This document shows positions 1-2,024 of a stretch of 2,024 bases of DNA, piece by piece. A program made the position numbers and the translations under genes. The notes under the pieces were generated by a model. The model was not told the origin of the DNA, searched no databases, and worked only from the letters and a program-made list of their open reading frames with translations. Source of the stretch: a virus (lineage: Duplodnaviria; Heunggongvirae; Uroviricota; Caudoviricetes); the IMG/VR virus record IMGVR_UViG_2778261418_000020, positions 1-2,024 of that record. One strand, 5' to 3'. Each line of letters begins with the position of its first letter. Position 1 is the first letter of the stretch.

Positions 1-201
1 TTACCCATTGGCGCGGCTTAAGAGCTTATTTTTGAATTCACAATGGTCACGATATAACCATCTTGCTCGCCCGTGGATAACTTTGGCTTTAGGCAGGTCT
101 CCGGACTTAATCCGGTCATAGATGAAGGTTTTACCGAAGCCAGTATCGGCCATGATGAATTTCAAATCAACCAGGGAATCAGGCTGTAGTTCGTGTTGCA
201 T
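1..201 (-). CDS. AlpA-family small DNA-binding protein, excisionase-like (Xis/AlpA type), 66 aa
   Basis: Complete ORF with ATG at 199-201 and TAA at 1-3. A GGAG lies 9 nt upstream on the minus strand (plus 216-219). The stretch LKFIMADTGFGKTFIYDRIKSGDLPKAKVIHGRARW fits the AlpA/excisionase helix-turn-helix pattern (TG..x.T.Y..I..G.FP....G.R.RW). Size and position at the low-coordinate end of an early operon are typical of xis preceding int. Family call is by eye. Confidence 0.7.
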   Translation of the reverse strand: MQHELQPDSLVDLKFIMADTGFGKTFIYDRIKSGDLPKAKVIHGRARWLYRDHCEFKNKLLSRANG

Positions 202-332: not shown

Positions 333-512
333 TTAGCTTTTTTCGTTGCCTTCGCGTTCTTTATTAATTTTGACAAAATCGTTTTTACCACGCTCTCCAA
401 ATGCGTCTTTAGAGTCGTTGTATCCGCAATCGCAGCACACATAATCATCAGACCATCCACGCATTGTTTTTTCTTTTGCAATATTTCCAGAACCGCATTT
501 TGGACAAGACAT
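333..512 (-). CDS. Small Cys4 zinc-ribbon protein, 59 aa (MSCPKCGSGN...CCDCGY...), function unknown
   Basis: Two cysteine pairs (CPKCG and CCDCG) spaced about 20 residues apart, typical of a zinc ribbon. ATG at 510-512 is preceded by a consensus Shine-Dalgarno GGAGG (plus 520-524) with a 7-nt spacer. The ORF track begins 11 codons earlier at TTG 543-545, which has no RBS, so the ATG start is preferred. Stop TAA at 333-335. Lysine/glutamate-rich C-terminal tail. Confidence 0.6.
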   Translation of the reverse strand: MSCPKCGSGNIAKEKTMRGWSDDYVCCDCGYNDSKDAFGERGKNDFVKINKEREGNEKS

Positions 513-608
513 ATCACTACCTCCAAAGCATGAGTGAGATGACAACGTAACATTGATTGGAGATTAACAATAGATTGCTGATGTAAAAGATATGTATAAG
601 CTTCGCTT

Positions 609-1016
609 TCAAAGTGGAGGCTCTGGTAGCGGCATCCAGTGTGTGACATTGCTAATCAGGTCATATTCATTAGTTTGAGGATGGTTGCCGCTATCATCTC
701 CATATTTAAGACTCTCCATAAAACCATAATGCTTATTCCCATTAACTCTCACAAAACCGTAATAAGCTGGTATAACGCCGATCTCACACGTAACCAGTAA
801 AGGAAAACTAGTTCTCCAATTTAGCTCGCCAATTACAGGCATTCGCTCACTACAGCTTATCCAACCATCCTGAGTTACCGGAGGGTTGCCAGCCTTGCGC
901 ATGGCAATCTCCACGATTTCAACCATATCTCCTGGCGGAATTTTGCAATGCTGACCAAAGCGCTTCTGCTGTCTGGCATATTCGAGGATGTGCTCCAGCT
1001 TGGTACGATTAATCAT
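609..1016 (-). CDS. DUF551-domain phage protein, 135 aa
   Basis: C-terminal half has the DUF551 signature recalled from lambdoid prophage proteins (GWISCSERMP...VTHWMPLPEPP). ATG at 1014-1016 overlaps the upstream stop (ATGA at 1013-1016). Shine-Dalgarno GGGAG at plus 1024-1028, 7 nt upstream of the ATG. Stop TGA at 609-611. Confidence 0.75.
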   Translation of the reverse strand: MINRTKLEHILEYARQQKRFGQHCKIPPGDMVEIVEIAMRKAGNPPVTQDGWISCSERMPVIGELNWRTSFPLLVTCEIGVIPAYYGFVRVNGNKHYGFMESLKYGDDSGNHPQTNEYDLISNVTHWMPLPEPPL

Positions 1017-1396
1017 GATTTATCTCCCTTAAGCATGGCAGCACGGCAGGCGTTCCAGCCAGCTGTTCGCCCAAGCGCGTAAACTTCAGATGGCTCAAGA
1101 TAATCAATGTCCTGCCCGTCCTCATCGTCGTTCTCAGGTAATGCAGCAGGTACTACCGGTACTGGCGGGGCGGCGTAGACTTCAATAATCCCATTATCAA
1201 TAGGCCATTCTCCATCCTTGAGATAGTCACTTGTGCCGTCAACTTGCTGTTCAGCAATGTGGAATGCACCAACTGGCTCTGCCTCAAGCGATGCCAGTGC
1301 AATTCGTGCCAGTTCCATTTGTTCGCCACGAGTAAGCCCGTTTTCAAGCGGATTTTTAATGAACAATTCAATACGTTCTTTGGTAATAGTGGTCAT
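1013..1396 (-). CDS. Hypothetical phage early protein, 127 aa, with acidic proline-rich linker; possible Ead/Ea22-like C-terminal motif (unverified)
   Basis: Complete ORF with ATG at 1394-1396. Shine-Dalgarno AAGGA at plus 1404-1408 with 7-nt spacer, overlapping the stop codon of the upstream gene. Stop TGA at 1013-1015 overlaps the next gene's ATG. Predicted helical N-terminus (LTRGEQMELARIALASLEA), then AAPPVPVVPAALPENDDEDGQDIDY linker, then GWNACRAAML tail. No family assigned with confidence. Confidence 0.65.
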   Translation of the reverse strand: MTTITKERIELFIKNPLENGLTRGEQMELARIALASLEAEPVGAFHIAEQQVDGTSDYLKDGEWPIDNGIIEVYAAPPVPVVPAALPENDDEDGQDIDYLEPSEVYALGRTAGWNACRAAMLKGDKS

Positions 1397-1406
1397 TTGT
1401 TAGTCC

Positions 1407-2024
1407 TTAAACTGCTAGTTGCAATTGCATTTCAAAGCGGTCGCGTTGTTCACAATACGCAAGAGAACCAGGGCTATTGTGTGCCTCAATCCGTTCTACC
1501 ATTAATGCTGCGCGTGTCTCTTTACTTGCAGGTGCATAAGCCCCAGACCAGGCTTTATCAATACCGATGTTTCGAGCGACGTTCGTACTATCTGCGCTGG
1601 CTAAGGGTAATTTTGTGAATATCAGCGGATTTAACATGCGCAATCCATGTAGTTTCGTAACCGGCTGACCATGCCCATCAACAATGTGACGAATCAGGTC
1701 TTTCATTCTGGCTACCGCAAGAGTTGGGCGCTTTACGTCATAGTCGCCACAACTACCGATAGCCACTCGCGGAAACTCATTGCACAAATGAATAAATCGC
1801 TCGTCACTTTCATTCATGTGCCACACTGGAACGCCAGCTAGTTTTCCGTGAGGCCACTCATTCAGAAGCGCATCATTTTCCTCCTCTCCGCCATCAATAA
1901 CATCCGGGATAATGGCAAAATCGAATCCTGGGTGATTCTTCCAGCGAGCAACAAACTCGTAGTAATCGCTCCAGTCGATTTTGTTTTTGCCAGCTGCTTT
2001 CCAGGCGGTGAATGCACCGTTGTC
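1407..2024 (-). CDS. TGT-fold (queuine/tRNA-guanine transglycosylase-like) protein, candidate phage DpdA-type DNA transglycosylase; partial, 5' end outside window
   Basis: Open minus-strand frame with no stop from 2024 down to TAA at 1407-1409, giving 205 codons in the window. The ORF track starts at an internal GTG (1824-1826), but the frame is open upstream to the window edge, so the true start is beyond 2024. Motifs in TGT order and with roughly TGT spacing: DNGAF (2010-2024) versus TGT DSGGF; FDFAIIPD (1902-1925) versus TGT IVMIFDE; AIGSCGD (1743-1763) in the glycine-rich position; LHGLRMLNP (1626-1652) versus LMGVGKP; SADSTNVARNIG (1563-1598) versus TGT DMFDCVMPTRNARNG, which holds the nucleophile Asp. 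Compared against E. coli Tgt from memory only. Confidence 0.55.
   Translation of the reverse strand, partial: DNGAFTAWKAAGKNKIDWSDYYEFVARWKNHPGFDFAIIPDVIDGGEEENDALLNEWPHGKLAGVPVWHMNESDERFIHLCNEFPRVAIGSCGDYDVKRPTLAVARMKDLIRHIVDGHGQPVTKLHGLRMLNPLIFTKLPLASADSTNVARNIGIDKAWSGAYAPASKETRAALMVERIEAHNSPGSLAYCEQRDRFEMQLQLAV

Follow-up and report, generated by a model that had tools for sequence, protein, structure and literature searches.

A prophage accessory protein built from exchangeable cassettes between short, near-invariant junction peptides

Ea22 of phage lambda is a modular, tetrameric and pro-lysogenic protein with exchangeable C-terminal domains, DUF551 among them (PMC10834534). EaA of phage P22 (AAM81404.1, 317 residues) is encoded between the Ea22-like eaD/eaI genes and eaG, and its chain continues into a dATP/dGTP pyrophosphohydrolase-like segment (recognized by eye from an EHAEWSDKTFG motif) and a DUF551 domain. 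The concept of "short conserved boundary sequences" has been credited to Clark et al. 2001 and Susskind & Botstein 1978 (PMC3029335). Here, we analysed a 2,024-nucleotide stretch of viral DNA (positions 1 to 2,024 of IMG/VR record IMGVR_UViG_2778261418_000020, hereafter the window) and, within it, an open reading frame (ORF) of 127 residues on the minus strand. This ORF shares the operon slot of lambda Ea22 and of P22 EaA and the modular logic of the Ea22/Ead_Ea22 proteins, but where Ea22 combines an N-terminal segment, a coiled coil and an exchangeable C-terminal domain, the window ORF begins with an EaA-type N-terminus. The exact 127-residue protein is already present in public assemblies, unnamed, and belongs to the mosaic accessory proteins of the lambdoid ea/exo-xis region. 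A preliminary description, made from the letters of the sequence, had presented it as a bipartite protein with an acidic, proline-rich linker, translationally coupled on both sides.

Inspection of 149 representative relatives showed that the protein is a chain of exchangeable cassettes between short, near-invariant junctions. Its anatomy, together with the signals at its two ends and the gene that follows it, is given below.

1404-1408, minus strand: Shine-Dalgarno-like AAGGA, 7 nucleotides 5' of the ATG, overlapping the upstream TAA stop
1013-1396, minus strand: the 127-residue ORF, a member of the EaA-leader/Ea22-slot cassette family without a C-terminal domain
1316-1396, minus strand: cassette A, residues 1-27 (MTTITKERIELFIKNPLENGLTRGEQM), an EaA-type leader comprising predicted helix 6-14 and the start of predicted helix 23-38
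1271-1315, minus strand: junction J1, residues 28-42 (ELARIALASLEAEPV), with alignment ends clustering at 1266-1277 and 1314-1319
1178-1270, minus strand: cassette B, residues 43-73 (GAFHIAEQQV...IIEV), a low-confidence beta-hairpin with a net charge of about -6
1148-1177, minus strand: junction J1.5, residues 74-83 (YAAPPVPVVP), which holds the GGTACT near-repeat, with alignment ends at 1146-1157
1061-1147, minus strand: cassette C, residues 84-112 (AALPENDDEDGQDIDYLEPSEVYALGRTA), an acidic linker running into the start of the C-terminal helix
1031-1060, minus strand: junction J2, residues 113-122 (GWNACRAAML), near-invariant, forming the end of predicted helix 102-124
1013-1030, minus strand: tail KGDKS and stop (AAG GGA GAT AAA TCA TGA), with Shine-Dalgarno AAGGGAG at 1024-1030 and ATGA at 1013-1016
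609-1016, minus strand: 135-residue DUF551 gene, translationally coupled downstream (Pfam PF04448, E 1.1e-11)

The junctions recur throughout the family as J0, the start MTTITKE; J1, ELARIALASLEAEP; J1.5, YAAPPxPVVP; and J2, GWNACRAAML; a further one, J3 (GNSPV(I/T)PDGW), is found in fusions only, right before DUF551. Between them, cassette A is near-identical, with few substitutions, to the start of P22 EaA, alternative cassettes such as VAYIFKHPAGKLFW occupy the B position in relatives, and the alternatives to cassette C are numerous (e.g. VVPEEKPMPNPLSMYAVDAVAAIAEVR). In a 50-sequence alignment, Y74, P77, P78 and P80-P83 were at least 90% conserved. When the window was compared by BLAST with 120 J2-containing viral contigs, the alignment ends piled up at four junctions, in clusters at 1026-1037 and 1056-1067 (J2), 1146-1157 (J1.5), 1266-1277 and 1314-1319 (J1), and 1374-1379 and 1410-1415 (J0). 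The AAGGA site is part of a "gene start" island (about 1374-1415) that is conserved and common to relatives. The term "bipartite" thus understated the architecture: three or more cassettes and four junction motifs can be distinguished, and an additional C-terminal domain is present in most close relatives.

We then considered J2, for which the combinations could be counted. The 159 ORFs with the exact J2 peptide, drawn from viral contigs and one genome per species, comprised 68 upstream classes (20 residues) and 81 downstream classes (24 residues) in 118 combinations, and the commonest upstream cassette was paired with 14 different downstream partners. DNA identity was near 100% at J2 and dropped to 30-50% within 6-10 nucleotides on each side, giving an island of about 26-35 bp in which the third-codon positions were about 77-94% one base. 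The majority 26-mer made up 63 of 122 viral-contig matches, and it was unchanged in 17 of 44 species-level genomes, including a Stagnimonas metagenome-assembled genome (MAG) and Pectobacterium. We also considered whether J2 is uniquely conserved at the DNA level, and dropped the idea, its third-position value being 0.83 against 0.74-0.91 at other conserved motifs of these genes.

The same motif is widespread. J2 DNA was present in 1244 of 5426 complete Escherichia coli genomes (23%), at up to five places per genome, under coding sequences (CDSs) labelled DUF551, ead/Ea22-like or hypothetical, or under no CDS. The peptide occurs in many Enterobacterales genera, and its nine-residue form was found beyond that order, with unrelated flanks, in assemblies of Pseudomonas, Aquitalea, Pigmentiphaga, Xanthomonas, Stagnimonas and Martelella. 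Since about 0.5 chance matches were estimated for the pattern in the collection, nearly all J2 matches should be real, although contamination may account for some of those outside Enterobacterales (e.g. on a 6-kb Micromonospora contig or on small contigs of Segatella and Collinsella MAGs). J2 is near-invariant across the relatives, and W, C and R were unchanged in the variants that still matched a W-x-x-C-R search pattern. No Pfam model covers J2, and the motif strings were found neither in the literature searched nor as text in the supplement of the Ea22 paper (PMC10834534).

We next asked how the ORF relates to described proteins. At E<=1e-3, 4234 database proteins matched it, and so did 976 clusters at 50% identity. 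The closest relatives are E. coli prophage proteins of 205-223 residues labelled "DUF551 domain-containing" or "Eaa", with 94-98% identity over residues 1-122 and divergence starting exactly past ...GWNACRAAML. These proteins (e.g. P0004, P0035 and P0115) share the cassettes and junctions of the window ORF; after GWNACRAAML, however, the fusions continue with QGKSEQPQNAQQNIPENIPGGNSPVTPDGW and then DUF551 or another domain, whereas the window ORF stops. Most close relatives likewise have J2, then a Pro/Gln linker, then a variable C-terminal domain (DUF551 in about one third). Among 150 representatives, Pfam domains were assigned as DUF551 in 46, dATP/dGTP pyrophosphohydrolase in 5 and Ead_Ea22 in 3, and the remaining ones had C-terminal parts without a Pfam model. 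The relatives' names are "hypothetical", "Uncharacterised" or "DUF551 domain-containing".

The hallmarks of the EaA-leader/DUF551 family, which corresponds to PHROGs 60, 660, 3323 and 5117 and whose N-terminal part has no Pfam model, are nearly all present in the window ORF. The MTTITKE leader and the ELARIALASLEAEP junction lie in residues 1-42 (phrog_3323, E 3.8e-20), and residues 1-46 were found by tblastn at the starts of EaA, DUF550 and DUF551 genes in many phages. The YAAPPxP junction follows the short hairpin cassette at residues 74-83, and GWNACRAAML occupies residues 113-122. A C-terminal effector domain on the same polypeptide is absent, DUF551 being encoded by the next, ATGA-coupled gene. 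P22 EaA, another member, has the first 40 residues in common with few substitutions (MTTITKERIELF.K.PLENGLTRGEQMELARIALASL.AE), as well as the YAAPPVP junction and the operon slot, but it lacks GWNACRAAML; in the window ORF, the B and C cassettes are different ones and the chain ends at residue 127. A protein of the same layout is gp22 of phage g341c, annotated "Truncated P22 EaA protein", which is free-standing, of the same length and 47% identical over its full length; PHROG 5117 (a 125-residue profile) matches residues 1-126 and shares the free-standing layout. The cassette sequences of g341c gp22 and PHROG 5117 differ from those of the window ORF.

Free-standing forms are a recurrent class of the family. 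Seventeen of the 150 representatives end exactly 5 residues past the motif and a few more within 14, and about one third of the viral-contig ORFs end no more than 11 residues past it. The five-residue tails are KGDKS, NGGKS, QGKGE, HGKGE and KGGAK. Free-standing paralogues of 131 and 135 residues stand in tandem with fused ones in single operons. In two loci (L038, 7471-8897, and L069, 1502-3191), two to three tandem paralogous cassette genes, free-standing or DUF551-fused, carry J1 and/or J2, and one protein (P0173) has two J2 copies 55 residues apart; such tandem arrays would allow intra-operon recombination.

The mosaic structure also left traces in public annotation. In E. coli RefSeq genomes (L001, L002, L129, L130 and L175-L177), the Prokaryotic Genome Annotation Pipeline (PGAP) called only codons 1-46 as a pseudogene ("incomplete; missing C-terminus"), and the calls repeatedly terminate at codon 46, by J1. 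The remainder was unannotated or split, even with an intact frame; the L001 ORF is 97.9% identical over 384 nucleotides. Because the gene is a mosaic, these pseudogene calls look like an annotation artefact. CAM6801335.1, a 127-residue protein of the same 90% cluster, is labelled "Valyl-tRNA synthetase", and the same label stands over the J2 match in one RefSeq genome (H134); it is apparently a mis-annotation that has been passed on. The same cassettes and J2 are carried by phage SJ46 (L004, Punavirus) and by several 92-112 kb E. coli P1-like plasmid prophages, so that the exchange network extends across lambdoid, P22-like and P1-like elements.

A vague resemblance to the C-terminal regions of Ead/Ea22-like proteins had been suggested, and it proved justified at the level of a shared cassette. 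In a lambda-type prophage of E. coli Z1323CEC0018, a 185-residue "ead/Ea22-like family protein" with the lambda Ea22 coiled-coil sequence ends in ...VVPEEKPMPNPLSMYTVDAVAAIAEVRGWNACRAAMLKGDKS, also quoted as ...AIAEVRGWNACRAAMLKGDKS. This end includes GWNACRAAMLKGDKS (J2 plus KGDKS), identical to that of the window ORF, and the next gene, ATGA-coupled as in the window, is the same MINRTKLEH...DUF551 gene. The J2-KGDKS-DUF551 unit is thus joined to at least two unrelated N-terminal partners. J2 DNA also lies under "ead/Ea22-like" CDSs (H114, H145 and H157), and Ead_Ea22 was among the domains of the representatives. The window ORF itself did not match the Ead_Ea22 profile (PF13935) at Pfam E<=1 or NCBIfam E<=0.1, and its model has no long coiled coil. 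Judged from sequence, the C-terminal sharing with Ea22 is a shared cassette and not family membership.

The observations on the ORF itself showed that it is a real gene under purifying selection. Its translation is the 127-residue sequence of the preliminary description, and re-reading the sequence bore out the proline-rich, acidic stretch and the near-repeat (GGTACT on the plus strand at 1149 and 1158), the latter being a trivial consequence of the PVPVVP codons. The ratio of nonsynonymous to synonymous substitution rates (dN/dS) was 0.10-0.23 against seven E. coli relatives, and three of the loci (L005-L007) are separated from the window by two synonymous changes and no others. The protein is indeed small, acidic and early in its operon, with 24 D/E against 10 K/R, an isoelectric point (pI) of 4.22 and a net charge of -14 (-6 in residues 43-75 and -8 in residues 76-112). 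Coupling on both sides was only half right: the TGA stop (1013-1015) overlaps the ATG of the DUF551 gene (1014-1016) in an ATGA overlap at 1013-1016, but upstream the preceding gene stops with a TAA at 1407-1409, leaving a 10-nucleotide spacer before the ATG. Genes are tightly packed on both sides, with a true overlap downstream only.

AlphaFold2, run with the 50-sequence alignment, predicted helices at residues 6-14, 23-38 and 102-124, a weak hairpin (43-46/70-73) and a linker without secondary structure. The two conserved helices at J1 and J2 were the best predicted, the J2 helix reaching predicted local distance difference test (pLDDT) scores of 74-82, whereas the block means were 51-53 at residues 51-70, the least confident part, and 58-71 at residues 71-100. 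No match to the 127-residue protein was obtained in Pfam (E<=1), NCBIfam (E<=0.1) or PADLOC. PDB sequences, queried with the protein alone and with a profile of 50 sequences, gave nothing below E=0.6, and Foldseek of the model against BFVD (viral models) retrieved uncharacterised phage proteins only, with poor TM-scores.

The end of the gene has a double role. The KGDKS codons are at the same time the Shine-Dalgarno sequence AAGGGAG, a 7-nucleotide spacer and the ATGA start of the DUF551 gene; the conserved-looking C-terminal tail noticed earlier is therefore two things, a GWNACRAAML that is nearly invariant in relatives and a downstream ribosome-binding site with its start. The same arrangement recurs widely among the short tails. 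The next ORF starts -11 to +2 nucleotides from the stop in 32 of 38 distinct cases, 16 of them with an ATGA or GTGA overlap, and a GGAG-type Shine-Dalgarno sequence is present in nearly all the short tails listed, before very diverse downstream genes. J2 recurs both in fusions and before gene junctions, and is therefore both an internal border and a last coding element. A fold calculation for the J2/Shine-Dalgarno/start region gave z = -0.6 and thus no evidence for a regulatory hairpin. A programmed frameshift or read-through into DUF551 was also considered and dropped: no canonical slippery heptamer was seen at the ATGA junction, and a lone 173-residue read-through variant (P0003) enters a nonsense frame.

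The 135-residue DUF551 protein has its own 50-residue N-terminal part (phrog_24004), followed by the DUF551 domain. In a model of the natural fusion P0035, DUF551 was predicted with a pLDDT of about 87 and was not packed against the N-terminal part, no contacts being suggested; as a model, this fits independent units on a flexible string. Residues 150-213 of P0035 (window 609-800) were modelled as a small all-beta unit, for which Foldseek gave weak Tudor/chromo/SH3-like barrel matches only (best E 0.07). DUF551 has no solved relative.

The above findings led us to a best overall explanation, to which we assign a probability of roughly 55%: a cassette-built gene of P22/HK620-like prophages that arose by exchange at the J2 island and whose product acts as a scaffold or adaptor. 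The 127-residue product joins leader helices of the P22 EaA type to a small hairpin and an acidic linker, in frame at MTTITKE, ELARIALASLEAEP, YAAPPVPVVP and GWNACRAAML, and the chain stops five codons past the last motif; those codons are the ribosome-binding site and ATGA start of a separate DUF551 gene. The mosaic build, the junction islands, the recurring free-standing forms, the purifying selection and the conserved coupling to the following gene are established by the observations above. The arrangement probably originated through homologous recombination within the stretch of about 30 bp of near-identical DNA that encodes GWNACRAAML, with the Rad52-type or Erf recombinases encoded a few kb upstream in the same operon as the putative exchange machinery. 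The minimal pairing segment is 23-27 bp for Red-beta and 31-34 bp for RecA (PMC3945230), and the J2 island of about 26-35 bp reaches or exceeds the value reported for Red-beta. As with the lambdoid boundary sequences of HK620 (Clark et al. 2001), short islands of identity flank unrelated segments here; unlike those boundary sequences, these islands fall within reading frames and encode conserved peptides, and exchange thus gives in-frame chimeric proteins. The function is the weakest step of this explanation. By analogy with Ea22, the product could be the acidic, partly disordered scaffold or adaptor half, in which the conserved helices at J1 and J2, as modelled, would mediate self-association or partner binding. 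It would then modulate the physiology of the host or the phage as Ea22 does, with no DNA mimicry. Relaxed recombination by Rad52-like recombinases was reportedly described by De Paepe et al. in 2014.

Several observations weigh against the cassette-exchange and scaffold explanation. Breakpoints and combinations were counted on loci picked for their exact J2 peptide, which introduces an ascertainment bias. The third-position values of the other motifs are similar to that of J2; DNA identity is therefore common to all shared islands and may reflect recent shared ancestry or gene flow and not a selected "linker" role. On the structural side, AlphaFold2 confidence was moderate (mean pLDDT 68, predicted template modelling score 0.36), and in the P0035 fusion model the middle part, including the J2 helix, fell below a pLDDT of 50. 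Finally, the matching PHROGs are all labelled "unknown function", and no annotated homologue gives a function.

A more far-reaching version, which we put forward tentatively and consider a good deal less probable than the explanation as a whole, is that the four in-frame junction motifs, J2 above all, are more than relics of common descent and are maintained as "splice points" at which Red-beta/Erf/Rad52-type annealing recombinases, encoded in the same operon, continually shuffle cassettes into a combinatorial library of early proteins. If true, this would amount to a recombination-based diversification of host-interaction proteins with a logic like that of polymorphic toxin loci, and the 127-residue ORF would be one draw from it. 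In those loci, CdiA "VENN" and Rhs "PxxxxDPxGL" junctions separate a constant N-terminal part from variable C-terminal domains. The likeness, a short invariant border peptide, would be an analogy of architecture only: unlike polymorphic toxins, the window family has no toxin/immunity pair, no secretion signal and no sequence relation to them.

We weighed these proposals against four alternatives. The motifs may be kept for a reason at the protein level only, such as a helix binding a conserved host target, with recombination incidental; we regard this as doubtful. It would account for the exact nine-residue peptide amid unrelated flanks in six genera from Pseudomonas to Martelella, for the constancy of W, C and R in the W-x-x-C-R variants and for the J2 helix being the best-predicted segment of the stand-alone model, but a peptide requirement alone would not predict that the third-codon positions are nearly fixed too or that the alignment ends coincide with the motif, and the hits outside Enterobacterales are partly open to the suspicion of contamination. 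Unlikely in our judgement is a split two-gene version, in which the 127-residue product would bind its co-translated DUF551 partner non-covalently, the two acting as one unit equivalent to the 211-220-residue fusions. ATGA coupling would favour coordinated translation, the pair is intact in all four neighbourhoods described below, the J2-KGDKS/MINRTKLEH-DUF551 junction also follows the Ea22-like protein, and the phrog_60 profile matches both proteins in successive regions. Yet the J2 tail precedes many unrelated genes (more than 20 different N-termini among 32), the halves make no contact in the fusion model, and the DUF551 gene here has an N-terminal part of its own.

More doubtful still is a non-functional by-product, a remnant left after recombination at J2 swapped the C-terminal domain and kept as a carrier of the downstream ribosome-binding site. 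Most close relatives are longer fusions, a free-standing relative was once annotated as truncated, PGAP called codons 1-46 a pseudogene in several genomes, and the frameshifted read-through variant P0003 exists; all of this would suit decay. A remnant, however, does not fit the low dN/dS, the purely synonymous differences from L005-L007 or the ORF's retention of its own Shine-Dalgarno sequence, nor the recurrence of 120-137-residue free-standing forms across numerous divergent clusters, with five or more different tails and side by side with fused paralogues in one operon. The least probable of the four is the reading favoured by the preliminary description, a host-takeover or anti-defence DNA mimic that would sequester a DNA-binding defence protein such as a restriction enzyme. 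The strong negative charge (pI 4.22, net -14) does resemble that of T7 Ocr and ArdA, with which the protein also shares its small size, and most free-standing relatives are acidic (mean -7.9 per 100 residues); the early-operon place near an anti-RecBCD gene and a weakly Lar-like zinc-ribbon gene points the same way. Beyond composition and neighbourhood, no positive evidence emerged. Unlike in Ocr and ArdA, the charge sits mostly in two exchangeable cassettes (residues 43-112), which include the least confident stretch of the model and the linker without predicted structure, and not on a confidently folded surface, although with a model of such low confidence the region may still fold on a partner. 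Nor is the charge conserved: free-standing relatives span net -1 to -15, other cassettes giving near-neutral values of -1 or -2, and the invariant J1 and J2 are not acidic. No sequence or fold likeness to a known mimic or anti-defence family, Ocr and ArdA included, was found in Pfam, NCBIfam, PADLOC, PDB or BFVD.

Taken alone, the ORF is one more hypothetical prophage gene. Its mosaic structure, however, explains the recurrent PGAP failure in several E. coli genomes and provides examples of boundary motifs that are translated in frame and at which proteins of the early operon have been recombined in very many combinations. GWNACRAAML, found in roughly a quarter of complete E. coli genomes as well as in several further orders of proteobacteria, is a motif without a Pfam model, and the P22 EaA leader, the lambda Ea22 slot and the DUF551 genes are tied into one exchange network. 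The conserved W, C and R residues and the island DNA provide a handle on how phage mosaic proteins form and on what this family does.

The convincing genes of the window are all on the minus strand and are transcribed in the order upstream PHROG 887 gene, 127-residue ORF, DUF551, Eag, terminator and TorI/Xis. The features around the ORF and the DUF551 gene are the following.

1407-2024, minus strand: 3' part (205 codons) of the upstream gene, which leaves the window (PHROG 887, E 8e-83)
333-545, minus strand: 70-residue zinc-ribbon "Eag" protein
250-269: terminator downstream of Eag, the sole convincing one
1-201, minus strand: TorI/Xis-like gene

The exact 127-residue protein was found on 8 contigs of public E. 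coli assemblies, with four distinct neighbourhoods shown, all of them ends of P22/HK620-like prophages adjoining dsdC; the identical protein occurs with two different upstream gene arrangements. Upstream in these prophages, the operon encodes cIII, kil, a Rad52-type or Erf recombinase, SSB, an anti-RecBCD gene and an Ead_Ea22 gene. In L005-L008 the early-left order is recombinase, anti-RecBCD, Ead_Ea22, 127-residue ORF, DUF551, zinc-ribbon Eag and TorI/Xis, which places the ORF in the slot between the recombination/anti-RecBCD genes and xis, as in the P22 order. No phage record or complete E. coli genome matched at least 80% of the 2-kb window in one place, and the window is thus itself a particular mosaic. 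Rfam searches of both strands gave nothing at E<=1, a tRNA scan found none in the window, a promoter scan found none within the region, and a repeat scan returned short, chance-level repeats only. A 13-nucleotide inverted match of J2 to position 1826 was judged to be chance. Plus-strand overlapping ORFs (e.g. 1244-1618, 124 residues) were taken as antisense artefacts, because all homology sits in the minus-strand frame.

Some neighbouring genes merit a comment. PHROG 887, to which the upstream gene belongs, is labelled "queuine tRNA-ribosyltransferase" in the category moron/auxiliary metabolic gene, and the gene could encode a DpdA/TGT-like DNA- or tRNA-modifying enzyme; no match to it was found in Pfam, NCBIfam or PDB sequences. 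It is named "EaA protein" in some Salmonella phage records, yet it is unrelated to P22 EaA. Between the terminator and the torI start, the stretch 219-240 (GGGAATCGAACCTGCAAATCA) looks like a tRNA T-arm in reverse complement (GGTTCGATTCC); ARAGORN detected no tRNA there, and the likeness may be an att-arm remnant or chance. The TorI/Xis-like protein matches the PADLOC model mad1 (mads_1, E 7.6e-14), which probably reflects shared excisionase-type helix-turn-helix ancestry and not a defence role. Eag shows a sub-threshold similarity to Lar restriction alleviation proteins (PF14354, E 1.5e-4, 22.4 bits against a cut-off of 28.6), and some protein in the Eag slot of related prophages is called "Lar family restriction alleviation protein" by PGAP; on current evidence, Eag is a better anti-restriction candidate of the operon than the 127-residue ORF.

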